This document shows, piece after piece, positions 4,134 through 27,493 of a stretch of 28,941 bases of DNA. The notes under the pieces are model-generated. The model did not search any database and was not told the origin of the DNA. It saw nothing but the letters and a program-made list of their open reading frames with translations. The DNA is from a virus (lineage: Duplodnaviria > Heunggongvirae > Uroviricota > Caudoviricetes). The position numbers and the translations under genes are program-made. The stretch's first letter is position 1, and each line of letters begins with the position of its first letter. The stretch covers positions 76,163 to 105,103 of IMG/VR virus record IMGVR_UViG_3300049595_003752; one strand, written 5' to 3'.

Positions 4134-6668
4134 ATGAAAAATATAACAAATAAAGATTTACAAAGAATGATAAGTTTAATGGGTAATAAAAAACCTATTA
4201 CTGAAAATAAAATTCATTCATCTCTTGAATTAATCAAAAAATCTCCAAACGGCAAATATTATGGTGTTGTTAGAGAAACAAAAAAATACTATATAAAAGA
4301 ATCTAATGATGGTTCTAATTTTGATTTTATCGGCGGTGTTGCTAATAAAATTAAAAATCAGTTTGAATCTTACGAACAAGCTGTTAGAAAACTTAATTTA
4401 ATGTTAGAAGATACTGATGTATTAACTCCAGACATTATTCAAGAAAAAAAGTTTGTTATTAAAACAAAAAAGAAAAAATCTGTTGAGCCTAAAGCTGAAG
4501 AAACACCTGAAGGTGGGGGTGATTTTAGTTTTGGTGGTGAGGAAACTGAAAGTGAAGAAGAAGGTGGTGATTTTGGCAGTGAAGAAGGTGGTGAAGATTT
4601 TAATTTTGGTGGTGAAGAAGAAACAGAAGAAAGTGATGAGTTTGGTGGTGAAGAAGAAACAGAAGGTGGAGAAGATTTTGAATTTGGTGGTGAAGAAGAA
4701 GAAAGTACTGAGGATACTGAAGAAGAAACCGACGAAGATTTAGATTTAGAAGACGAGGGTGAAGATTCTATTAAATACATTCAAAAAATGACTGGTAAAT
4801 TAGGTCAAAAACTTAGAGATACTGAAGATTTATCATCGGATACAATGAAATGGGTTGCTAAAAGTGTTCTTTCAGCATTAGACCTTGACCAAATGGATTC
4901 TGAAGATAAAAAAGATATTATTCGTACTGTTAAAAAGAAAAAAGAAGAAAGTTCTGACGAAGAATTTGATTTCATGAACGACAAACAAGTTATGTCAACA
5001 CCAATCATGACTTATATGTCTAATGACGATATGGTCGATTGGAATAAATTGTCTGACCAAGAAAAGGCTCAAATTGTTAATAACGGTGATGATGATTTAA
5101 TGGATATGGAAGAAACAAACACTTGTTCACACTGTAATGGTTTAGGTCTTGATGATATGACAGGTGAAGAATGTGAGTGGTGTATGGGAACTGGTGTTGA
5201 AGACATGGAAGATTATATGATGGATTCAAAAGAAGAAGATGATATGTACGGACCTGGTGAAGATAAAATTGAAAGTGGTGAAGAAATATTATCTGATGAT
5301 AATTGTTCTTATGGTAGTGACCGTAATCAACCTTACTATGGTGAAACTGAAATGGAAGGTTATCCAGGTATGGAAGAAGACTGGATGTCTGATAAAAAAG
5401 ACTACATGTCAAGATTCGCTAAAAACGTTAAACGTTCAGTCCAAGGTAAAAAAATGGATGAAGAAGAACTTGATTCTCATTTAAGAAAAATTAAAAATAA
5501 ATTAGGTGGTTCAGATATTAGTATAGATGACAATAAAGTTGTAGGTAGATTTGGTTACGTTGACGTAAAGTCTAATGGTTATACAGTTCATTTAGAAGGT
5601 CAAAAATTTGGTAAAACTTTTCAATTCAATGAATTAGGTAAATTACACGATTATGTTAGAGAAATGGGTGAAGATTATATGGATGACCCATATATGATGC
5701 CTCAACCAGCTCCAGCAAGACCTCAGACAAGACCTGATACACCTACAAAACCTGCTAAACCAGGTACCGATAAACCAAGTCCTTCAAAACGTCCTTTTAC
5801 ACCTCCGCCTCATATTACACCTGGTGAAGAACCAAATCCTAAAGCAGGGTATGATGAATATGGTATGGAAAGTTACGGACCAACTGAAGGTATGGATTAT
5901 ATGGAAGATGATACTATAGAAATGTGTTCAGCCTGTGAAGGTAGAGGACATGAATATGGTCGTATAGGTTTTAATCGTCAAACAAACTTTTGTATTACTT
6001 GTGCAGGTACTGGTATGGTTCCTAGAATGGAAATTAATGGTGAGGTTGATGAGCCTTATACGGACGATGCTAACCCTATGTACGGTAATCAAACAAATAC
6101 TTTACCAAAAGGTATGGGTACTAGATACCAATACAAAGAAAAATTTACTTTTCCATTTGGTATGGGTGAAAATAGTAAACGTAACAAAAAAACTATTAAA
6201 GAAGACCATTTAAACAATAAAATGGCTTCTTATGAACAGGATATGGCTTACGAAGATGTTGAAGATATGGCTAGACAACACGGTATGGATGTTGAATTTT
6301 GTCACAAAGATATGGCTAAAGACCCTGAAGAACAAACCATTTATTTGGATTTAATGAAAAAGGGTAAGGTTGTGGCTAAGATTAGAATTAACACGGCAGG
6401 TGATATTGAAATGGGTGGTATGAAAGGTAAAGTTTTTAAAGGTGAACCAGTTGACTCTCATTCAGATTTTGACGAAGTTTTAGATGAAAAAGGAATAAAA
6501 ATGATGCCTCAACCAGCTCCAGCAAGACCACAAACAAGACCTGAAACACCTGTTAAACCGGCAAAACCGGGAACAGATAAACCATCTCCATCTAAGAGAC
6601 CGTTTACACCTCCGCCTCATATTACACCTGGTGAAGAACCAAATCCTAAGGCAAGATATAGAAGATAA
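4134..6668 (+). CDS. Large acidic multidomain phage protein (probable head-core/internal protein) with two CxxCxGxG pairs and a duplicated Pro-rich module
   Basis: 844-aa ORF after ATATTTAT (4077-4084). GGEE/DFxFGG low-complexity tract, CSHCNGLG/CEWCMGTG and CSACEGRG/CITCAGTG motifs, and a 51-aa duplicated segment. Confidence 0.65.
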   Translation: MKNITNKDLQRMISLMGNKKPITENKIHSSLELIKKSPNGKYYGVVRETKKYYIKESNDGSNFDFIGGVANKIKNQFESYEQAVRKLNLMLEDTDVLTPDIIQEKKFVIKTKKKKSVEPKAEETPEGGGDFSFGGEETESEEEGGDFGSEEGGEDFNFGGEEETEESDEFGGEEETEGGEDFEFGGEEEESTEDTEEETDEDLDLEDEGEDSIKYIQKMTGKLGQKLRDTEDLSSDTMKWVAKSVLSALDLDQMDSEDKKDIIRTVKKKKEESSDEEFDFMNDKQVMSTPIMTYMSNDDMVDWNKLSDQEKAQIVNNGDDDLMDMEETNTCSHCNGLGLDDMTGEECEWCMGTGVEDMEDYMMDSKEEDDMYGPGEDKIESGEEILSDDNCSYGSDRNQPYYGETEMEGYPGMEEDWMSDKKDYMSRFAKNVKRSVQGKKMDEEELDSHLRKIKNKLGGSDISIDDNKVVGRFGYVDVKSNGYTVHLEGQKFGKTFQFNELGKLHDYVREMGEDYMDDPYMMPQPAPARPQTRPDTPTKPAKPGTDKPSPSKRPFTPPPHITPGEEPNPKAGYDEYGMESYGPTEGMDYMEDDTIEMCSACEGRGHEYGRIGFNRQTNFCITCAGTGMVPRMEINGEVDEPYTDDANPMYGNQTNTLPKGMGTRYQYKEKFTFPFGMGENSKRNKKTIKEDHLNNKMASYEQDMAYEDVEDMARQHGMDVEFCHKDMAKDPEEQTIYLDLMKKGKVVAKIRINTAGDIEMGGMKGKVFKGEPVDSHSDFDEVLDEKGIKMMPQPAPARPQTRPETPVKPAKPGTDKPSPSKRPFTPPPHITPGEEPNPKARYRR
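4513..4760 (+). repeat. Degenerate coding repeats (ggtggtgaagaagaa; GGEE/DFxFGG)
   Basis: Repeated GGEEE and DF(S/N/E)FGG units in the 844-aa ORF. Boundaries approximate. Confidence 0.7.
5694..5846 (+). repeat. Copy 1 of 153-nt/51-aa Pro-rich direct repeat
   Basis: MMPQPAPARPQTRPDTPTKPAKPGTDKPSPSKRPFTPPPHITPGEEPNPKA. Copy 2 is at 6501-6653. Confidence 0.95.
6501..6653 (+). repeat. Copy 2 of 153-nt/51-aa Pro-rich direct repeat
   Basis: 49/51 aa identical to copy 1 (D>E, T>V). Confidence 0.95.
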
Positions 6669-17117: not shown

Positions 17118-18269
17118 ATGAGTAAAGTTTTTTTAGAATACATTTGGTTAGATGGTAATAGTCCCCAAAATCTAAGAAGTAAAACAAAAGTTGTTGACAG
17201 TACAGATATACTTGAAAGAGATGGTAATTCTAAACAAGGTTACCCTGAATCCTATCCACTTTGGAGTTTCGATGGCAGTTCAACAAAACAAGCCGGTGAG
17301 GAATTTGGTTTTGATGGTACTGATTGTGTTTTAAAACCTGTCTGTGTTGTTAGTGACCCTTTTAGAAGTAAAAGTTCATCTTACCTTCACAAATTAGTTT
17401 TTTGTGAGGTTTTTAACCCTGACGGTAAAACACCACATAAAACAAACACAAGAAGTAAGTTAAGGGATTTATTAGCCGACCTTAAATTCAAAGAGTATGA
17501 CGCAAATCATTCAGAAGTTCCTTGGTTTGGGTGGGAACAAGAATACGTTATAACACACGCTCCAGACCCGAATAACCATTTTAGGTATGGTGGAGGATTT
17601 CCTTTAGGTTTTTTAGCCGGTGATTCAGGTAAACCAAGACCACAAGGTGATTACTACTGTGGTGTCGGTGGACTTAACGTTATTGGTAGAGACATTGTAG
17701 AAGAACATCTTACAAAATGTGCAGAAATAGGGTTAGATATAGGTGGAATTAATGCCGAGGTATTGATAGGTCAATGGGAATATCAAATAGGCCCTGTGAC
17801 TGCTTTAAACGGTTCTGACCAATTATGGATTTCACGTTACATACTTGAAAGAGTTGCTGAGAAAAAAGGTTTAGGAATTTCTTATCACCCAAAACCTGTT
17901 AACGGTGATTGGAATGGTAGTGGTTGTCACGTAAACTTTTCAACCAAAGAAATGAGAGAAAAAGGTGGAATTAAAAAAATTCTTGAATCATGTGATAAAT
18001 TGTCTGAAAGACATAAAGAACATATTGAAGTTTACGGTGAGTTTAATGAAAAACGTTTAACTGGTAAACACGAAACATCTAGTATGGAAAAATTTAGTTT
18101 TGGTAATTCTGATAGAGGTTCAAGTATTAGAATACCTGTACATACATATACCAACGAAAGGGGTTATTTCGAAGATAGAAGGCCAGCGGCTAACTGTGAC
18201 CCATACAAAGTTTCTAACGTAATGATTGAAACAGTATTTGATAAGGCTGGAATAACAGTGGAACAATAA
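17118..18269 (+). CDS. glnII: Glutamine synthetase type II (GSII/GlnII)
   Basis: EYIWLDG, LRSKTK, WSFDGSST, FGWEQEY, PQGDYYCGVG, GINAEV..GQWEYQIGP, HPKPVNGDWNGSGCHVNFST, RLTGKHET, RGSSIRIP and GYFEDRRPAANCDPY. Confidence 0.95.
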   Translation: MSKVFLEYIWLDGNSPQNLRSKTKVVDSTDILERDGNSKQGYPESYPLWSFDGSSTKQAGEEFGFDGTDCVLKPVCVVSDPFRSKSSSYLHKLVFCEVFNPDGKTPHKTNTRSKLRDLLADLKFKEYDANHSEVPWFGWEQEYVITHAPDPNNHFRYGGGFPLGFLAGDSGKPRPQGDYYCGVGGLNVIGRDIVEEHLTKCAEIGLDIGGINAEVLIGQWEYQIGPVTALNGSDQLWISRYILERVAEKKGLGISYHPKPVNGDWNGSGCHVNFSTKEMREKGGIKKILESCDKLSERHKEHIEVYGEFNEKRLTGKHETSSMEKFSFGNSDRGSSIRIPVHTYTNERGYFEDRRPAANCDPYKVSNVMIETVFDKAGITVEQ

Positions 18270-18739: not shown

Positions 18740-19378
18740 TTAAGCCTTTGGGGACTTAAGTTGGAGTTGTGGTTCCACTTCGGCTAACAAAGTTGTAACG
18801 TTTACACCTTTATCTTTTGCCACCTTATAGATACTGTCAATCAAACCTTTTTTAACAGAGTACTTAGTTACACCTACAATAAGGGTTTCTTTATCCTTAT
18901 CAGATATTTTATCACAAGTTTCAATTAACTCAGAGATAACTTCTTGGTTACGTTCAAGAACTTCGTTGTTAAACTTAAACTCAGTAGCCTCGTCAACGAT
19001 ATCTTCACCGTAAGTTTCTTTAAGGTAATTGGCTCTTTCTTCGTTGATAGATTTGTACTTATCTTGAACAACCACCATTACTGATGCACCTTGTTCGGAA
19101 GCCATAATGAATGAAGACTCACGTTTACCTGTACGCTCAATTAAATTAGAAAATTCAGACATACCCAATTCACGAACATAACCATCAGCGTCTTTGATTT
19201 CAGCCTCAAGCTTGTCAATTTGTTCTTTAAGGGTTGCTAACTTCACCAATTTAGCGTGGAATTCTGCCATTTCAACAGGTGATTCAAACGCTGGTATAAC
19301 GTGTGATTTGTCTTTTGATTTTGCAGTCTTAGTGTCTGTAGATTTTGCTTTCGCCTTGTTGAAAAGATTTGATGCCAT
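18740..19378 (-). CDS. Hypothetical protein (coiled-coil), probably early/host-RNAP transcribed
   Basis: 212-aa ORF preceded by a Bacteroidota-type promoter. Confidence 0.75.
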   Translation of the reverse strand: MASNLFNKAKAKSTDTKTAKSKDKSHVIPAFESPVEMAEFHAKLVKLATLKEQIDKLEAEIKDADGYVRELGMSEFSNLIERTGKRESSFIMASEQGASVMVVVQDKYKSINEERANYLKETYGEDIVDEATEFKFNNEVLERNQEVISELIETCDKISDKDKETLIVGVTKYSVKKGLIDSIYKVAKDKGVNVTTLLAEVEPQLQLKSPKA

Positions 19379-19443: not shown

Positions 19444-20976
19444 TTAAATAGAAATTTCTTCTACTTTTCCTTCAACTTCAAAAGGATATATTGGAGACCA
19501 TTCTGTAATATCGTTTGACATTACGGGTTTACCACCTTCCATTCTATTAACAGCAATTGTAATATGTGGGATTTTATTTTGTGTTTTAATTTCGGATTCC
19601 ACCTTAACAGCCACAACTTTGTCTGTTTGTCCTATATGAGTTACTAATAAATCAAAGGGTTGGTCTAAAAGAGGTTTAGACTCTTCTTTAAGTGGGCCCA
19701 TATTGATGGTCATGTGATGCCCAATAAATTCCCAATCTTTTGGGTGCGGAATATATTTTTTTAATAGTTTTCTTGATTCTTCATTAAGAATTACGCCTGA
19801 ATAACTTACCTTTTTTTTAGATTCATTCATAAGTTTTAAAAATTTTTCTTTTTCTATTCTTTCTTTTTCTTGGCCAATTTCACGACCTTTAAAACCTTTT
19901 TTTATTAGGTCATCACCTGAAGTTGTTATTTTATATTCTAAAAAAGTGTCTACAATTTTATTAGGTATTTTCATTAAGTTACTAAATGTTCTTAGTGTTT
20001 CTTCAGATATCCCGATAACTTCAAATCTTTCACGTAATTTATAAACATCTGTCCCGTATTGTAAAAACTTAATTAAGAAACTGATTTCTTTTACTTCATC
20101 AACTGTATACTTAAGCTTGTTAACTAATGTTTTTTCAACCAATGTAGGCTCGTTACTTTGTAGTAAAACAGCTATAAGTACGTTAGCCTCTTTAGTCTCA
20201 ATTAAAGGTTCTGTTGTAACTACAAGTCTACCAAATATCCAGTCCCAAAGATTGTACTTAGTTATTAATTGTGTAAAATACCCTACAGACTGTGCTTGTT
20301 TAATACCTTTAAGAAATTCATCTCTAATACGTTCTTGTGATATTGGAAGTCCGTTACCACTAATAGTGGTTTTATCTTTACTTATAGCACTTTCAATGTC
20401 TTTATCCACATCGGAACCAACACGGGCGGCAAATCTAAGTGCTCTAAGTACACGTAGTTTATCCTCATCGAAACGCTCTACTGCTGAACCAACTGTTCTA
20501 ACCACGTTTCTTTCAATGTCACCAATACCACCAACCAAGTCAACCACTTCACCTTTATCTATATCATAGAAAAGAGCGTTGATGGTTAAATCACGACGCT
20601 TAACATCTTGGTCAATTGTAGTAAACTCTACAGAGTCAGGTCGTCTACCTTTACCAATGTCTTTACGGAAAGTAGCTATTTCATATTGACCATCTTCCGT
20701 GACTACGTTAACAATCCCAAATTGTTCACCCAATTCAATTGTACGGTACATGTTTAGAATAGACTTAATTTCTTCGGGTTTAGCGTTAGTAGCTAAATCA
20801 AAATCTTTAGGTTCATTACCATAAAGTAAATCCCGCACAGCACCACCAACAACATATAACTCATAACCGTTTTCCTTGAAAATTTGGTTCATTTTCAATA
20901 CGGAATTAGGTAGGTCCATGTGTATTTTCTTTCTTACCACTTCTTCTTTTAAGATTTTTCGAATCAGGTTCTTCAT
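19444..20976 (-). CDS. cca: Class II tRNA nucleotidyltransferase (CCA-adding enzyme) fused to C-terminal 2H phosphoesterase
   Basis: VGGAVRDLL...KDFDLAT, GEQFG, EIATFRKD..GRRP loop, RRDLTINAL, EDKLRVLRALRF. The C-terminal region (about 19444-19830) has two HxT motifs (HHMTI, PHITI). Confidence 0.88.
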   Translation of the reverse strand: MKNLIRKILKEEVVRKKIHMDLPNSVLKMNQIFKENGYELYVVGGAVRDLLYGNEPKDFDLATNAKPEEIKSILNMYRTIELGEQFGIVNVVTEDGQYEIATFRKDIGKGRRPDSVEFTTIDQDVKRRDLTINALFYDIDKGEVVDLVGGIGDIERNVVRTVGSAVERFDEDKLRVLRALRFAARVGSDVDKDIESAISKDKTTISGNGLPISQERIRDEFLKGIKQAQSVGYFTQLITKYNLWDWIFGRLVVTTEPLIETKEANVLIAVLLQSNEPTLVEKTLVNKLKYTVDEVKEISFLIKFLQYGTDVYKLRERFEVIGISEETLRTFSNLMKIPNKIVDTFLEYKITTSGDDLIKKGFKGREIGQEKERIEKEKFLKLMNESKKKVSYSGVILNEESRKLLKKYIPHPKDWEFIGHHMTINMGPLKEESKPLLDQPFDLLVTHIGQTDKVVAVKVESEIKTQNKIPHITIAVNRMEGGKPVMSNDITEWSPIYPFEVEGKVEEISI

Positions 20977-21031
20977 ATAATGTAAATATATGAATTTATT
21001 GCATATTTATATAGAAAAACTTTTTATAAAA

Positions 21032-21817
21032 ATGAAAATTTTAAAATCTAACGAAACAGGTAAAGGTATCTTAGTCGAATATGACGCGGGTTATATTTCA
21101 CCTGATATATCGTATAAAGGTACAAAAAATGCTGATTTAATTCGTGAATTTAAATCAGGTACAAATATAGGAAAAGACGGTAGTCTACCAGACGTAGTTA
21201 TTGTTTACGCAGTACTTCAAAAATGGGGTATTGAAAATAAAAACGGAAGATTATACCCAAAAGAAATTCTTGAAAGAGAAAATACTAGATACCAAGAATA
21301 TATTAAAATGGGTACATCTCTTGGTGAGTTAAACCACCCTGAATCTTCCATCATTGATGCAGACAGAGTATCTCACAGAATTACTAAAACTTGGTGGGAT
21401 GGTAAAACACTTATGGGTGAGATGGAATTGGATACAACTCCAGGATATCACAAGTTAGGTGTTATTTCTTCGGTTGGTGATAAAGTTGTTAACATGATTA
21501 GAAAAGGTTGGACTGTTGGTATTTCATCTCGTGGTGTTGGATCACTTAAAGTTGAAAACGGTAAAAACGTAGTACAAGATGACTTTGAATTAATTTGTTG
21601 GGATATTGTAACATCTCCGTCAACCCCAGGTTCTTGGATTTCAACTGACGCTGGTGATTTAAAAACATTTACAGAATCAACCCAAGGTTGTAACGGTTAC
21701 TCTTGTCAATGGAACCTAATTGAAGAGGCCCCTAAAAAAGAAACTGTAAGTTTCAAAGATATCACTAACCATAATAGTGATAAATTATTAAACAGTTTAA
21801 ATAAATTTTTAAAATGA
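21032..21817 (+). CDS. gp21: Prohead core protease (T4 gp21-like); start revised from 20990 to 21032
   Basis: NKNGRLYP, GELNHP (His), GISSRGVGS (Ser), WDIVTSPS. ATATTTAT at 21003-21010 lies inside the longer ORF call, which favours the MKILK start. Confidence 0.92.
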   Translation: MKILKSNETGKGILVEYDAGYISPDISYKGTKNADLIREFKSGTNIGKDGSLPDVVIVYAVLQKWGIENKNGRLYPKEILERENTRYQEYIKMGTSLGELNHPESSIIDADRVSHRITKTWWDGKTLMGEMELDTTPGYHKLGVISSVGDKVVNMIRKGWTVGISSRGVGSLKVENGKNVVQDDFELICWDIVTSPSTPGSWISTDAGDLKTFTESTQGCNGYSCQWNLIEEAPKKETVSFKDITNHNSDKLLNSLNKFLK

Positions 21818-22098
21818 GTAAAGTAGTTAGATTAAACGAAAAAGATATTGAAAGATTGGTTAGAAAAATCATGTCCGAAGATAAACAATCGAAGACGGTT
21901 GATATGAAAGGTAAGAAGTGTACCAATTGTAAAAAAGGTAAATACGGTGAAACATCACAACTTGACGATTTAGAAGGTGTACTTCATTGTACAAATTGTG
22001 GAAAAAAAACCGATAGATATGTAGATAAAACCGTAAAAGAATCTTGGCCAAAAAGAGAATTAGAAAGAAAAGTAATTAATTTCCGTAGAGATATTTAA
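21814..22098 (+). CDS. Small zinc-ribbon protein with N-terminal VVRLNEKDIERLVRKIMSE tag
   Basis: CTNC...HCTNC pair. ATGA overlap with the protease gene. Confidence 0.7.
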   Translation: MSKVVRLNEKDIERLVRKIMSEDKQSKTVDMKGKKCTNCKKGKYGETSQLDDLEGVLHCTNCGKKTDRYVDKTVKESWPKRELERKVINFRRDI

Positions 22099-22168
22099 AT
22101 TGCGCAGCTGCGCTTTTGCAAAAGCAGCTTAGCAAGCAGCAAAAGATCTAAAAAATTAAAAATGGAAG

Positions 22169-22199
22169 GGGATATGTAGTTTACATATCCCTTTTTTTT
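22169..22199 (+). terminator. Intrinsic terminator
   Basis: gggatatgta-gtt-tacatatccc plus T8. Confidence 0.85.
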
Positions 22200-22237
22200 A
22201 TATAAAATTACCGTATAACAATTAAAATAATAAACAA

Positions 22238-22471
22238 ATGGATAATAATGTAGCAAAATACTTTTTAGTAAAGGTAGAATTTGAAACCATTAATGAAAGT
22301 AATGGTAAACAGAAAAAAATTAGAACACAATATCTTGTGGATGCAATGACTTGTACTGAGGCTGAAGCTCGTACTCGTACTTATTTAAAAGATTCTGTAA
22401 TGGATTATGAAATTGTAAGTACAACAAAAAGTCCTATTGAAGACGTTATTGAAGTACTTGTAAAGGCTTAA
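22238..22471 (+). CDS. DUF4494-like protein
   Basis: YFLVKVEFE...NGKQKK...YLVDAMTCTEAEAR pattern recalled for the Bacteroidota DUF4494 family. Confidence 0.7.
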   Translation: MDNNVAKYFLVKVEFETINESNGKQKKIRTQYLVDAMTCTEAEARTRTYLKDSVMDYEIVSTTKSPIEDVIEVLVKA

Positions 22472-22944
22472 TGACGATATTGTTTTGGTAAACCTACTTT
22501 GTTAGCAACCTTTTGGAAAACCCCACCATGGTTTCTAGCTTCAGTATCTTCCAATCCGTGAGCGGCATGAATTAATTCGTGTTTAATAATATCTTCAACG
22601 TATTCAGTATCATTAAGGGCCTTGGGATGAATCTTCATTATTCCAAGGTCTTTTTTATTTTCAGGATGTTTAAATGAACCTATCTTTCCGGCTTTAATTT
22701 TATCATCCACTTTAACAACAATGTTATCGTCACTAACAGGTTCTTCACCTGTAATTTCTTTATAAGCTTTTTCTACCTTTTTTTTAATACGGTCCTTCAT
22801 GTTGTCAACTTTTTTAGTTTCTTTTGGAAACTTGGAATTCTTTGTTGCCTTTTCCTGAGCATAGTCAACTTTTCTCATAAAATCATTCGATTCTAAATGA
22901 TCCTCAATAAATTCTCGTAATATTTTTCTGATATTATTTCTCAT
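22468..22944 (-). CDS. SprT-like zinc metallopeptidase domain protein; start revised to 22944 (MRNNIRKILRE)
   Basis: IIKHELIHAAHG...HGGVF (HExxH plus downstream His). TATTTAT (minus, 22956-22950) lies inside the longer 23019 ORF call, 5 nt before the 22944 ATG. Confidence 0.75.
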   Translation of the reverse strand: MRNNIRKILREFIEDHLESNDFMRKVDYAQEKATKNSKFPKETKKVDNMKDRIKKKVEKAYKEITGEEPVSDDNIVVKVDDKIKAGKIGSFKHPENKKDLGIMKIHPKALNDTEYVEDIIKHELIHAAHGLEDTEARNHGGVFQKVANKVGLPKQYRH

Positions 22945-23083
22945 CATAAATAAATATCCCAATTTTTTAATAAAAAAATTACTTTTTTCTCTTGACTTGT
23001 TGCACTTTACTGTAGGCAAACATATTTATTTAAAAATCTTGCATAAGTGTGCAAGATAAATTATAATTCGTTAAAAAATAAAA

Positions 23084-24668: not shown

Positions 24669-26465
24669 ATGGGATATTTATTAAAATCAGGTGAGGTTGG
24701 TAATATCGGATTAAAGCACCAAAAAGCTATCCGTGAGGCAACTGTAAACAAATGGGAATCTTTAGGATTCTTAGAAGGCTTAGAAGGCCATATCAGAGAA
24801 AACATCGCTTTGTTATATGAAAACCAAGCGTCAGTTCTTATCAATGAAACTACCACTGCTGGTGGTGTTGGTACACAAGGAAGTTCTTCTGGTTCTTTCG
24901 AAACAGTTGTATTTCCTATCGTAAGACGTGTGTTCTCTAAATTATTAGCTAACGACATCGTTTCTGTACAAGCATTAAACTTACCTATCGGTAAATTATT
25001 CTACTTCGTACCTAAACGTTCTGAGAGAATTGATGATTCAGCTTTCTTGGCAGGTACAAATGGTGGTACATCTAAACATGGTGAGCCTATCGTTACAACT
25101 TGTGTTGATGCAGCTAGTAACTGTGATTTAACATCATACAGTGCTTGTTTAAAGAATCTTTATGATGCTTTCTACAATGACGGTCTTTTTGATCAATCAA
25201 AAGGTATGATAACTTTAAAAGTTGTTACAGGTTCTACTTGTGTAGTATGGACAGCTTGTACTAATGGATTTGAATTTGGTGCAGGAAAAACTCCAGCAGC
25301 AACTGATGGTTCATTACGTCACCAAATTATTGAAGTTACAGGATTTAATTCAACCGGTGCTGGTCGTTTAATCACTCCAGACGGTAATGAAATGGATACT
25401 GAATCTTTCTTAGCATCTTTAACTGTTTCTGCAACTGCAAACATTCTTGACCCAGCTGGTCAAACAATTTACAGTAACGGTGATTCAATTCCTTTCCGTG
25501 TGGTAACACAAAAATATGGTAAAGGTATTGTTCAGTACGGTGATATCTGTACAGCTGATGGTAAACTTTATATTGAAGTTGACTTAACTCACCCAACTTG
25601 TGTAACTTGTGGTACTAACACATTTGATGGTTACATTGGAGCTGATTATACTGGAACTACTTGTTCTGAAATCGCTGGTTTCATTTCTTGGAGACAATAC
25701 TCTGACCTTGAAGCTGAATCAGAAATGGGAGAAGTTTCTTTCGAACTTCAATCTGTAACTGTATCTGTTACTGAAAGAAAATTAAGAGCTACTTGGACTC
25801 CTGAATTAGCACAAGACGTTAGTGCATTCCACAACATCGATGCTGAAGCTGAATTAACAGCATTATTATCTGAGCAAGTTGCAGCTGAAATTGACCGTGA
25901 AATCTTAATCGATTTACGTAAAGGTGCGGCATGGCAATTACGTTGGGATTACAACGGTTGGAAGCGTTTACCAAACAACAATGGTTACACTCAAAAAGAT
26001 TGGAACCAAACTTTGATGACAGCTATCAACCAAATCTCAGCTCAAATCCATAAATCTACATTAAGAGGTGGAGCTAACTTTATCGTTGTATCTTCTGAGG
26101 TATCAGCAGTATTCGATGATTTAGAATATTTCCACGTATCTAACGCAGCTCCTGAGCAAGATCAGTATAACATGGGTATTGAAAGAGTAGGTTCATTAAG
26201 TGGACGTTACACTGTATACCGTGACCCTTACGCTCCAGCATATTCAGTTATCATTGGACACAAAGGTAAGTCATTGTTAGACACTGGTTACATCTACGCT
26301 CCATACGTACCGATGCAGTTAACACCTACAATGTACAATCCGTTTAACTTCGTACCTGTTAAAGGTATCATGACTCGTTACGCTAAAAAAATGGTGAACA
26401 ACCGCTTTTACGGCCATATCAGAGTTGACGGTTTACGTACTTTTGATGTTAGAGAATTACGTTAA
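24669..26465 (+). CDS. gp23: Major capsid protein (T4 gp23-like)
   Basis: FPIVRRVF..L.A.DIVSVQ, RKLRATWTPELAQD..A.H.IDAEAEL..LLSEQVAAEIDREI, GYIYAPYVP and GIMTRYA motifs. Confidence 0.96.
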   Translation: MGYLLKSGEVGNIGLKHQKAIREATVNKWESLGFLEGLEGHIRENIALLYENQASVLINETTTAGGVGTQGSSSGSFETVVFPIVRRVFSKLLANDIVSVQALNLPIGKLFYFVPKRSERIDDSAFLAGTNGGTSKHGEPIVTTCVDAASNCDLTSYSACLKNLYDAFYNDGLFDQSKGMITLKVVTGSTCVVWTACTNGFEFGAGKTPAATDGSLRHQIIEVTGFNSTGAGRLITPDGNEMDTESFLASLTVSATANILDPAGQTIYSNGDSIPFRVVTQKYGKGIVQYGDICTADGKLYIEVDLTHPTCVTCGTNTFDGYIGADYTGTTCSEIAGFISWRQYSDLEAESEMGEVSFELQSVTVSVTERKLRATWTPELAQDVSAFHNIDAEAELTALLSEQVAAEIDREILIDLRKGAAWQLRWDYNGWKRLPNNNGYTQKDWNQTLMTAINQISAQIHKSTLRGGANFIVVSSEVSAVFDDLEYFHVSNAAPEQDQYNMGIERVGSLSGRYTVYRDPYAPAYSVIIGHKGKSLLDTGYIYAPYVPMQLTPTMYNPFNFVPVKGIMTRYAKKMVNNRFYGHIRVDGLRTFDVRELR

Positions 26466-26487
26466 TCGTATTATACTCTATAAATTT

Positions 26488-26515
26488 AAAAGGGTGGTTT
26501 TTACCACCCTTTTTT
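26488..26515 (+). terminator. Intrinsic terminator after the capsid gene
   Basis: aaaagggtggt-tttt-accaccctttt plus T run. Confidence 0.88.
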
Positions 26516-26547
26516 ATGATCTATTTATAATAAACGTTAATATGGGT

Positions 26548-26563
26548 ATATTTATATTATATG
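26548..26563 (+). repeat. 16-bp direct repeat, left copy (ATATTTATATTATATG)
   Basis: Identical to 27238-27253. Includes the promoter-like motif and the start codon. Confidence 0.9.
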
Positions 26564-27493
26564 GGAAAGAAAAGAATTGAAATACCTGAAGATGTTTTAT
26601 TAGAAATGGTAAGATTATATAATGAAGAATATGTTGGTACCCCATCATTGTCAGATAGATTTGGTTACCATAAATCTATTATATTAAGAAGTTTTAAAAA
26701 CAAAGGTGTTGTCTTAGGTCCATCTGGTCGTAAATGGACTGGTGGTAGAGAGATTGCTGATAAAAAATGGAGAGAAAAAAATAAAGAAAAATTATCCGAA
26801 TATCATAAAGAATGGTCAGAAAAAAACCGAGAATATTTACGTGAATATCATGCCAAATGGCGTGAAGTAAATCGTGAATCATTAAACGAATATAAAAGAC
26901 ATTACGAAAAAACCAAAAAAGATTCTGACCCAGCTTATAAATTGGCTTGTTACACCAGAACTGCCATCTATACTTGTTTAAAAGAAAGAAATGTTGATAA
27001 ATATAAAAATACTTTTGATTTATTACCTTATACGTTGGAAGAGCTGATTCAACATTTGGAACTTAGATTTCAAGAAGGTATGTCGTGGGATAATTATGGA
27101 AGATGGCATGTTGATCACATTAAACCAATGGTTTCTTTTAATATTAAAGAACCGACTGATAAAGAATTTCAAGATTGTTGGTCTTTAAGTAATTTACAAC
27201 CATTATGGGAACAAGATAATTTATCCAAAGGTGGTAGATATTTATATTATATGCCAAAGAACTATATACCATACGATCTAGCCTTAAAATTGAATGAAAA
27301 GGGTTATAATGTATCCACTCATGCTTATTATAACATCTATAATAAACATATATTTATTCACACACCTGTCAATCATAATGAAGCTATATGGGCACCAACT
27401 TTTGGTGAGACTATTGATTGGTTCAAAGAAAATTACGATATTGATGTACAACCAAATGTAGAATCTATTGAAGAGGCTTTGAATAAAATATGA
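26561..27493 (+). CDS. HNH-type homing endonuclease (26561-27250) fused in frame to a separate small gene (27251-27493)
   Basis: N-terminal HTH-like region, K/E-rich helix, MSWDNYGRWHVDHIKP...NLQPLWEQDNLSKG, then RYLYY-MPKNYIPYDLALKLNEKGY... with its own promoter-like motif and ATG. Confidence 0.8.
   Translation: MGKKRIEIPEDVLLEMVRLYNEEYVGTPSLSDRFGYHKSIILRSFKNKGVVLGPSGRKWTGGREIADKKWREKNKEKLSEYHKEWSEKNREYLREYHAKWREVNRESLNEYKRHYEKTKKDSDPAYKLACYTRTAIYTCLKERNVDKYKNTFDLLPYTLEELIQHLELRFQEGMSWDNYGRWHVDHIKPMVSFNIKEPTDKEFQDCWSLSNLQPLWEQDNLSKGGRYLYYMPKNYIPYDLALKLNEKGYNVSTHAYYNIYNKHIFIHTPVNHNEAIWAPTFGETIDWFKENYDIDVQPNVESIEEALNKI
27238..27253 (+). repeat. 16-bp direct repeat, right copy
   Basis: Identical to 26548-26563. 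Confidence 0.9.

Follow-up and report, generated by a model that had tools for sequence, protein, structure and literature searches.

A phage CCA-type nucleotidyltransferase joined to a miniature 2H domain, a candidate bifunctional enzyme of tRNA 3' ends

Among bifunctional enzymes that heal tRNA 3' ends and rebuild their CCA terminus, all those known to us carry an HD domain, Cca of Escherichia coli being an example. Phage T4 counters the anticodon nuclease PrrC with Pnkp and Rnl1, 3' ends being healed by the HAD-type phosphatase domain of Pnkp, and cyclic phosphodiesterases (CPDs) of the CNPase and Trl1 type yield ends with a 2'-phosphate and a 3'-OH. The HD domain of the E. coli CCA enzyme clears 2',3'-cyclic phosphate in tRNA repair (PMC6961547), and a paper in that article's reference list (Yakunin et al. 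2004) names in its title 2'-nucleotidase and phosphatase activities of the E. coli HD domain. In surveys of jumbo phages, CCA enzymes and 2H phosphoesterases appear as separate RNA-repair parts (PMC7824862). Here we describe a 510-residue protein in which a CCA-type nucleotidyltransferase is followed by a very small 2H domain (mini-2H), encoded on the minus strand of a stretch of 28,941 nucleotides (the window; positions 76,163 to 105,103 of IMG/VR record IMGVR_UViG_3300049595_003752). The record is a 105 kb fragment with a completeness estimate of 33%. The gene resides in an uncultured T4-like jumbo phage with a genome of roughly 300 kb, whose bacterial hosts are probably Bacteroidota.

This CCA-2H architecture is real and well supported, on evidence that is computational throughout (sequence comparison and predicted structures), and the same holds for all support for the function we propose. 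We think it rather likely that the protein is a bifunctional tRNA 3'-end enzyme in which the CCA-type nucleotidyltransferase and a 2H domain of the CNPase/Trl1 clade would complete the phage's tRNAs and mend cut ends. A search of the literature returned no paper describing a CCA-2H fusion, prior mention in Burroughs & Aravind 2016 (NAR 44:8525) being possible.

Architecture of the 510-residue protein

An earlier reading of this DNA (the original prediction) had placed the gene and named its motifs (DxD, RRD, EDxxR, a loop, LMNES, HHMT and PHIT); the open reading frame (ORF) matches that position exactly and every one of the named motifs is present. The protein runs from a short tag through the CCA-type nucleotidyltransferase and a linker to the mini-2H domain, with features as follows (window coordinates; AF2, AlphaFold2; pLDDT, predicted local distance difference test).

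19444..20976, minus strand: whole gene, 510 codons plus stop (full-length AF2 model, pLDDT 90.0)
20944..20976, minus strand: N-terminal tag MKNLIRKILKE, residues 1-11 (disordered in the model; shared peptide)
20497..20859, minus strand: predicted PolyA_pol head, residues 40-160, with motif A, flexible loop, motif B and motif C (PF01743; alignment with 1miv)
19825..20496, minus strand: predicted neck, body and tail, residues 161-384, with motifs D and E (PHROG 2244; model compared with CCA enzymes)
19819..19833, minus strand: LMNES junction, residues 382-386, candidate processing site of the form (L/M)-x-E followed by S (pLDDT dip; motif enrichment)
19447..19821, minus strand: mini-2H of CNPase/Trl1-CPD type, residues 386-510, 125 residues (fold, motifs, PF08302)
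19708..19716, minus strand: first HxT motif, H421-M-T423, within HHMT 420-423 (invariant; on a beta strand)
19558..19566, minus strand: second HxT motif, H471-I-T473, within PHIT 470-473 (invariant; on a beta strand)

As judged from its predicted structure, the C-terminal domain has a 2H fold with high confidence and belongs, in much reduced form, to the CNPase/Trl1-CPD branch. The AF2 model of the domain scores a pLDDT of 95.8 and a predicted template modelling score (pTM) of 0.88, with the HxT motifs on beta strands (model residues 37-41 and 87-92). In an exhaustive structural comparison the catalytic domain of mouse CNPase (2xmi_A) came out far ahead, with a Z score of 13.1, a root mean square deviation of 2.3 Å and 124 of 126 residues aligned. 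The remaining matches down to Z 4 were mostly 2H proteins (a Burkholderia phage phosphodiesterase, CPDases, Acb1, LigT, Usb1, ns2, VP3, AKAP18 and ASCC1), the exceptions being a few type IA topoisomerase chains at Z 4.0-4.8. Foldseek was concordant with a 2H fold. The top four matches in the AlphaFold database/Swiss-Prot were the tRNA ligase CPD domains of Schizosaccharomyces pombe, Arabidopsis, Candida and yeast, and giant-virus Trl1-like ligases headed the matches in a viral structure library, where Acb1 was much weaker. In an alignment of 47 diverse homologous mini-2H domains with different fusion partners, both HxT motifs (H421-M-T423 and P470-H471-x-T473, spaced by 50 residues) were invariant, as were Y392, S401 and W493.

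Membership of the domain in the Pfam family PF08302 (tRNA_lig_CPD) is borderline by sequence. Residues 385-510 alone score 24.0 bits against a cutoff of 23, over profile positions 138-218 of 250 only, and in the scan of the whole protein the match falls under the threshold at 19.6 bits; taken individually, 43 of the 47 diverse family members match PF08302 at E <= 0.01. The unannotated family phrog_36523 spans residues 391-492. The Pfam models of Acb1 (PF23474), LigT and 2_5_RNA_ligase2 gave no match to residues 385-510 even at E 10. Against all sequences in the PDB, the profile of the 47 domains found no credible match, Trl1 and CNPase chains included, and the single domain found nothing; the 2H assignment therefore relies on the fold, the motifs and the threshold-level Pfam match. 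By analogy with its structural neighbours only, the domain would be a cyclic phosphodiesterase.

The nucleotidyltransferase occupies residues 20-384 and is a complete class II enzyme with motifs A to E. PF01743 (PolyA_pol) matches residues 40-160 with E 8.6e-37 (126.7 bits, cutoff 23), and PHROG 2244, 'tRNA nucleotidyltransferase', spans residues 37-391. Motif A consists of GGAVRD (44-49) and DFD (58-60), followed by the flexible loop FRKDIGKGRRPDSVEF (103-118), motif B RRD (127-129), motif D EDKLR (171-175) and motif E ERIRDE (215-220). In a 31-sequence alignment, G44, G45, R48, D49, D58 and D60 of motif A are invariant together with R127, R128, D129, D172 and R175. By sequence the best solved homolog is the Bacillus stearothermophilus CCA enzyme 1miv (131 bits), with which motifs A to D and the flexible loop align, followed by the bacterial CCA-adding enzyme 6ibp (125 bits) and E. 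coli poly(A) polymerase (PAP; 117 bits). The full-length AF2 model, built from the 31-sequence alignment (pTM 0.68), matches the complete CCA enzymes 4x4w, 6qy6 and 1miv with template modelling (TM) scores by target of 0.64-0.74 over 370-400 columns, thus across head, neck, body and tail, and PAP with 0.56-0.62. The top NCBIfam model was NF009814, the Bacillus-type CCA tRNA nucleotidyltransferase (193.2 bits against a cutoff of 290, residues 32-237 only). NF008137, the E. coli-type multifunctional enzyme of CCA addition and repair, reached 86.2 bits against a cutoff of 451, and the Pfam scan gave no HD match. From sequence and model we read the nucleotidyltransferase as being of the CCA-adding type, its exact specificity lying beyond proof by sequence.

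The original prediction of a class II nucleotidyltransferase core followed by a 2H domain of about 125 residues, standing where E. coli Cca has its HD domain, was thus borne out by the strong PolyA_pol match and the motifs, by the invariant HxT pairs and the similarity to CNPase, and by finding a 2H fold and no HD match; the tRNA_lig_CPD relationship is borderline, lying just above the threshold for the isolated domain and below it for the whole protein.

Distribution of the mini-2H domain and RNA-related genes of the relatives

A word-indexed search found the domain in 222 proteins with two main architectures, namely a CCA-type nucleotidyltransferase plus mini-2H (426-767 residues) and an AAA_33 kinase plus mini-2H (about 300 residues), the latter mirroring the kinase-CPD module of Trl1 and CNPase. 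An exhaustive profile search gave 2,570 mini-2H representatives at 50% clustering. Among the best 150 of these 2,570 representatives, the stand-alone domain (at most 180 residues) was the commonest form with 72, while 42 were fusions to a CCA-type nucleotidyltransferase, with the 2H on the N-terminal side in 6, and 10 were fusions to a P-loop kinase; the rest had partners without assignment and included proteins of more than 1,000 residues. The long proteins that we sampled join the mini-2H to a different nucleotidyltransferase lineage (PF12627, PF13735), sometimes with a second, LigT/Acb1-like 2H domain. As the fusions occur in different nucleotidyltransferase lineages, the coupling of CCA-type enzyme and mini-2H is recurrent and arose more than once, and the sequence comparisons indicate that the mini-2H is a large mobile module that has been joined to CCA-type enzymes repeatedly and independently. 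None of 50,697 GenBank phage records covers 80% of the 510-residue protein, so that the CCA-2H fusion is absent from them; in GenBank phages the mini-2H is always a protein of its own, annotated as 'hypothetical protein', and of the 19 records 17 are Bacteroides phages (crAss-like, DAC19-22).

Larger relatives of the record measure 312-318 kb, and since the record itself is only about 33% complete we made use of a 96%-complete relative of 318 kb (G001), which retains the CCA-2H fusion. G001 carries a tRNA array (G001:C1:2300-21900) with 22 aragorn genes and 26 Rfam matches, in which 18 of the 22 tRNA genes are missing an encoded CCA, so that CCA addition is needed for the maturation of the phage tRNAs. 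This routine role was absent from the original prediction. A little way past this array, at about 25 and 29 kb, G001 has Metallophos genes. In the record itself Aragorn detected no tRNA gene, which weighs little at 33% completeness. A further relative (G002), whose CCA enzyme is without a mini-2H, has about 50 tRNA genes, about 60% of them with encoded CCA; its tRNAs include a predicted suppressor type (anticodon TTA) and one call with a four-base anticodon.

Elsewhere in the record, at record positions 25835-27270 outside the window, lies a gene for an Rnl1-family RNA ligase of 339 residues with an EKVDGS motif (PF09511, 70 bits), which overlaps by ATGA a gene for a 139-residue AAA_33 P-loop kinase that has neither a phosphatase nor a CPD. 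Together with the 2H domain, ligase and kinase would represent the three Trl1-type activities, going by their sequences, on three genes. A protein-query search of G001 found no Rnl1-family ligase and no AAA_33 kinase, an RNA_ligase-family match being only weak and sub-threshold. As G001 keeps the fusion without such a ligase or kinase, the 2H is not tied to a phage ligase pathway.

Tag, junction and head-module context

The first 11 residues of the protein fit a consensus, M-[KR]-N-[LN]-I-[RK]-[KQ]-I-L-[KR]-E, with which the products of at least six ORFs across the 105 kb record begin. The peptide is retained as protein in diverged homologs with conservative changes, has a pLDDT below 50 in the full-length model and, in related phages, is carried by 26 of 96 CCA-2H and 9 of 66 kinase-2H proteins and by no stand-alone form. 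The prohead protease of T4-type phages cleaves by the motif L/I-x-E, and the tag terminates in L-K-E, consistent with this T4 gp21 rule. Six orthologs (P0034, P0037, P0044, P0046, P0047 and P0130; e.g. L007:8001-9941) have one or two extra modules of about 125 residues with a 'DFDWV'-type start between tag and enzyme, and a second KLKEE junction just ahead of the enzyme core. With the modules inserted behind it, the tag stays at the extreme N-terminus. A gene at 22468-23019 (minus strand), for a SprT-like metalloprotease-type protein (PF10263, 26 bits) that is conserved in the head module of the relatives, probably has its true start at an internal ATG at 22944, which yields the same tag as MRNNIRKILRE; ATATTTAT at 22950-22957 lies exactly 5 nucleotides upstream of this start, an arrangement as in the gene studied here.

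Upstream of the gene the divergent arrangement is as follows.

20982..20989, minus strand: ATATTTAC, promoter-like motif 5 nucleotides before the ATG (sequence read and motif count)
20990..21817, plus strand: predicted gp21-type prohead protease (Peptidase_S77), divergent neighbour (phrog_207, E 1.3e-40)

At this distance ATATTTAC leaves no space for a Shine-Dalgarno sequence. The pattern ATATTTAY is present 22 times in the window against 9.3 expected, a count reached in none of 100 shuffles, and is also found upstream of the terminase, portal, protease and scaffold genes, so that the gene has a signal in common with the head genes.

The LMNES of the linker closes the last tail helix, and pLDDT falls to 72 in the block 381-390 there; relatives have LITES, LMTES or IMSES at the junction. 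In the ORFs of the record [LM]NES is found 10 times against 1.1 expected (standard deviation 1.1), an excess of about 9-fold, mostly at apparent module junctions. Other ORFs that bear it, all outside the window, lie at record positions 49485-51209 (plus strand), 51757-52791, 20580-21602, 21855-22466 and 4595-5908. One ORF of 575 residues has five copies of the form (I/V)F(N/D)xLNES between modules of about 100 residues, like beads on a string, and these repeats represent protease sites or else joints of module shuffling.

The window is the head module of a T4-like phage, with genes for the large terminase, a gp20-type portal and a glutamine-synthetase-like protein, then the inverted gene for the CCA-2H protein, and onwards a gp21-type protease, the SprT-like protein, an acidic scaffold-like protein and a gp23-type capsid protein. 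In all relatives examined (C-terminal domains 86%, 66% and 62% identical) the CCA-2H gene is adjacent and divergent to the Peptidase_S77 gene, the orthologous protease gene being recorded with PF03420. The likely true start of the protease ORF is the ATG at 21032 and not 20990, since otherwise ATATTTAT at 21003-21010 would fall inside the coding sequence and only 13 nucleotides would separate the divergent genes. For the gp23-type capsid gene (24669-26465, plus strand) ATATTTAT is at 24674-24681, just within the listed start, and the true start may therefore be a later ATG. The glutamine-synthetase-like gene (17118-18269, plus strand; Gln-synt_C, E 7.6e-18) stands between the portal and protease genes and is conserved there in three of three relatives (L004, L005 and L007), an unusual member of a head block. 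An ORF of 212 residues at 18740-19378 (minus strand), which follows directly downstream of the CCA-2H gene on its strand after a gap of 66 nucleotides, was dismissed as a possible partner, having no Pfam or PHROG match and being absent in L005 and L007; the 312 kb relative L004 does have it.

By these sequence features, late expression, packaging and proteolytic trimming of the protein are plausible. Having a tag that looks cleavable and a gene in the head block, the protein may be made late and packaged. The original prediction went further and suggested that the enzyme is delivered by the virion; the tag and the promoter-like motif on which it drew are real, as is the position in the head module, and for delivery all three are circumstantial. 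We regard as doubtful, though worth stating, the full scenario in which the protein is expressed from a late promoter, taken into the prohead by its tag, trimmed by the gp21-type protease at LKE-E and perhaps MNE-S (the hyphen marking the cut) and injected with the DNA. Were it true, an activity that cleans and rebuilds tRNA 3' ends would be in the cell before any phage gene expression, as a pre-emptive, virion-delivered counter to defences that cut tRNA ends, and the same tag on kinase-2H enzymes would mean that a whole RNA-repair kit is injected. A tag that truly loads repair enzymes into capsids would define a new class of injected phage proteins.

Proposed function, alternatives and comparison with described systems

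In the bifunctional enzyme that we propose, the N-terminal 380 residues would add CCA to the phage's own tRNAs and the same nucleotidyltransferase could rebuild CCA on truncated tRNAs, whereas the C-terminal 125 residues would open 2',3'-cyclic phosphates at RNA 3' ends, such as would come from metal-independent nucleases or spontaneous transesterification. By analogy with the clade the 2H product would be an end with a 3'-OH and a 2'-phosphate, and a separate phosphomonoesterase, of phage or host, would probably be required before or after extension. The proposal builds on the identities and folds of the domains, their conserved catalytic motifs, the recurrent independent fusion and the CCA-less tRNA array of the relative; the substrates, the order of the steps, the 2'-phosphate product and any coupling between the domains are what we infer from these. 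The reading of the 2H as a healer of RNA ends, as originally predicted, is supported by its CNPase/Trl1-CPD neighbours, the fusions to RNA kinases and the independent fusions to CCA enzymes.

Several points weigh against this proposal. The protein misses every NCBIfam equivalog cutoff, sequence and fold cannot strictly tell CCA-adding from A-adding or poly(A) activity, and the relative orientation of the two enzyme domains is uncertain in the full-length model, as its pTM of 0.68 indicates. A CPD of the CNPase/Trl1 type would, by analogy, leave a 2'-phosphate, the weak point in the chemistry, and the 33%-complete fragment has no Tpt1, histidine phosphatase, HD or Metallophos gene; searches for Tpt1, histidine phosphatase and HD that also took in the relatives gave no candidate 2'-phosphatase in the fusion-bearing phages. 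With such a product and no monoesterase in the fragment, the description of the enzyme as 'self-contained' in the original prediction is unsupported and was an overstatement, and either a helper phosphatase or tolerance of the 2'-phosphate by the nucleotidyltransferase has to be assumed. LMNES is, as its sequence suggests, a candidate protease site that may separate the domains, and a cut at the junction would speak for a co-packaged polyprotein and against a coupled enzyme; the original suggestion of such a site gains from the enrichment of [LM]NES, with cleavage staying at the level of a candidate. Finally, for 2H domains in the polyvalent proteins of phages, and for the free-standing phage forms of these domains, Iyer et al. 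2017 (PMC5512222) suggested roles as RNases or in destroying nucleotide signals, and not in RNA repair.

The alternatives to which these points lead can be weighed against the same data. If the fusion is mainly a delivery device, the tag would take a precursor into the prohead, the protease would cut it at LKE-E and MNE-S, and a CCA enzyme and a mini-CPD would be freed to work independently after injection or in the cell, where the CPD could also serve a Trl1-like healing-and-sealing pathway with the phage's Rnl1-family ligase and P-loop kinase. We consider such a polyprotein unlikely, even though the L-K-E end of a tag borne by at least six ORFs, the ten [LM]NES (1.1 expected) mostly at module junctions, the second KLKEE before the core of relatives with extra N-terminal modules and the constant position beside the Peptidase_S77 gene in the head block would all suit it, as would a ligase whose overlapping AAA_33 kinase has no phosphatase or CPD of its own and the predominance of stand-alone mini-2H domains. 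CCA-mini-2H fusions in other lineages, with other linkers and in reverse order point to a functional link beyond packaging. Moreover, M-N-E departs from the canonical L/I-x-E, the homolog P0087 is without the Glu at the junction, and G001 retains the fusion without ligase or kinase.

It is improbable, in our estimation, that the nucleotidyltransferase is a PAP, or an A-adding or CC-adding enzyme in need of a partner, instead of a full CCA-adding enzyme. CCA enzymes and PAPs are hard to tell apart by sequence: the NCBIfam pcnB model scores 185 bits, near the 193 of the CCA model and like it under its cutoff, and good structural matches include E. coli PAP and the Aquifex A-adding enzyme. Yet CCA enzymes come first, if by a small margin over PAP, both by sequence and by fold over all four domains, the flexible loop is intact and invariant, as is the EDxxR templating motif, and G001, with its 18 CCA-less tRNA genes, is matched by the 2H profile of the fusion in one place of its 318 kb (further nucleotidyltransferase genes not having been searched for). 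Slightly less probable still, in our view, is a mini-2H that serves as a counter-defence nuclease against second messengers (an Acb1-like or ns2/VP3-like 2'-5' phosphodiesterase) or as a Usb1-like RNase, with the CCA fusion incidental. Acb1, ns2, VP3 and Usb1 are indeed 2H proteins, with weaker structural matches at Z 5-7, some giant proteins have a mini-2H beside an Acb1/LigT-like 2H domain, and such roles have been proposed for polyvalent-protein 2H domains (Iyer et al. 2017, PMC5512222), but CNPase reaches Z 13.1 where Acb1 reaches 6.9, the Pfam models of Acb1, LigT and 2_5_RNA_ligase2 are silent, and the recurrent partners are RNA 5'-kinases and CCA enzymes, a pairing as in Trl1 and CNPase.

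If the bifunctional reading holds, a widespread phage solution with a minimal metal-independent 2H would show convergent coupling of healing and rebuilding, and tRNA 3'-end cleavage, beyond anticodon cleavage, would be a battleground of phage and host; a preprint reports HEPN-type RNases of defence systems that cleave the acceptor stems of tRNAs (bioRxiv 10.64898/2025.12.03.690598). A CPD as small as about 125 residues would serve enzymology and the making of RNA-end tools, and naming the mini-2H family would better annotate many phage genomes, crAss-like ones included.

Among described systems, the stand-alone CCA enzymes of jumbo phages (for example Caulobacter CcrSC, Brevundimonas phages and Lak phages) have a homologous nucleotidyltransferase, with 28-32% identity over residues ~20-390, and come from large phages with tRNA arrays (PMC7824862); unlike the protein described here they are without a 2H fusion. 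The tag resembles the capsid targeting sequence that the gp21 prohead protease removes from T4 internal proteins and Alt, in being a short N-terminal peptide that ends in L-x-E and is common to unrelated proteins, a likeness that extends to the gp21-type protease, gp20-type portal and gp23-type capsid protein of the phage, whereas its sequence is unrelated and its role as a packaging signal is putative. The tRNA repair of T4 is likewise a phage answer to tRNA cleavage, and an Rnl1-family ligase and a P-loop kinase are present in our record too; T4, however, repairs anticodon loops, whereas in our record the kinase has no phosphatase, and the 2H attached to the CCA enzyme is the sole healer of 3' ends seen. 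With the CPD of Trl1/AtRNL (PF08302) and vertebrate CNPase the mini-2H shares the fold, the two HxT motifs and the pairing with a P-loop RNA kinase, in about 125 residues against their 210-250, and its partner in this protein is a CCA enzyme and not a kinase or ligase. From E. coli Cca the protein differs in that its healing domain would be a metal-independent 2H of 125 residues in place of a metal-dependent HD domain, so that it fails the defining feature of that family, and in that the HD domain also removes the resulting monophosphate, which a 2H of the CNPase/Trl1 type is not expected to do. What the two have in common is a class II CCA-type nucleotidyltransferase and a C-terminal domain that opens, or in our protein would open, cyclic phosphates, placed on one polypeptide in a logic of cleaning the tRNA end and then rebuilding it.

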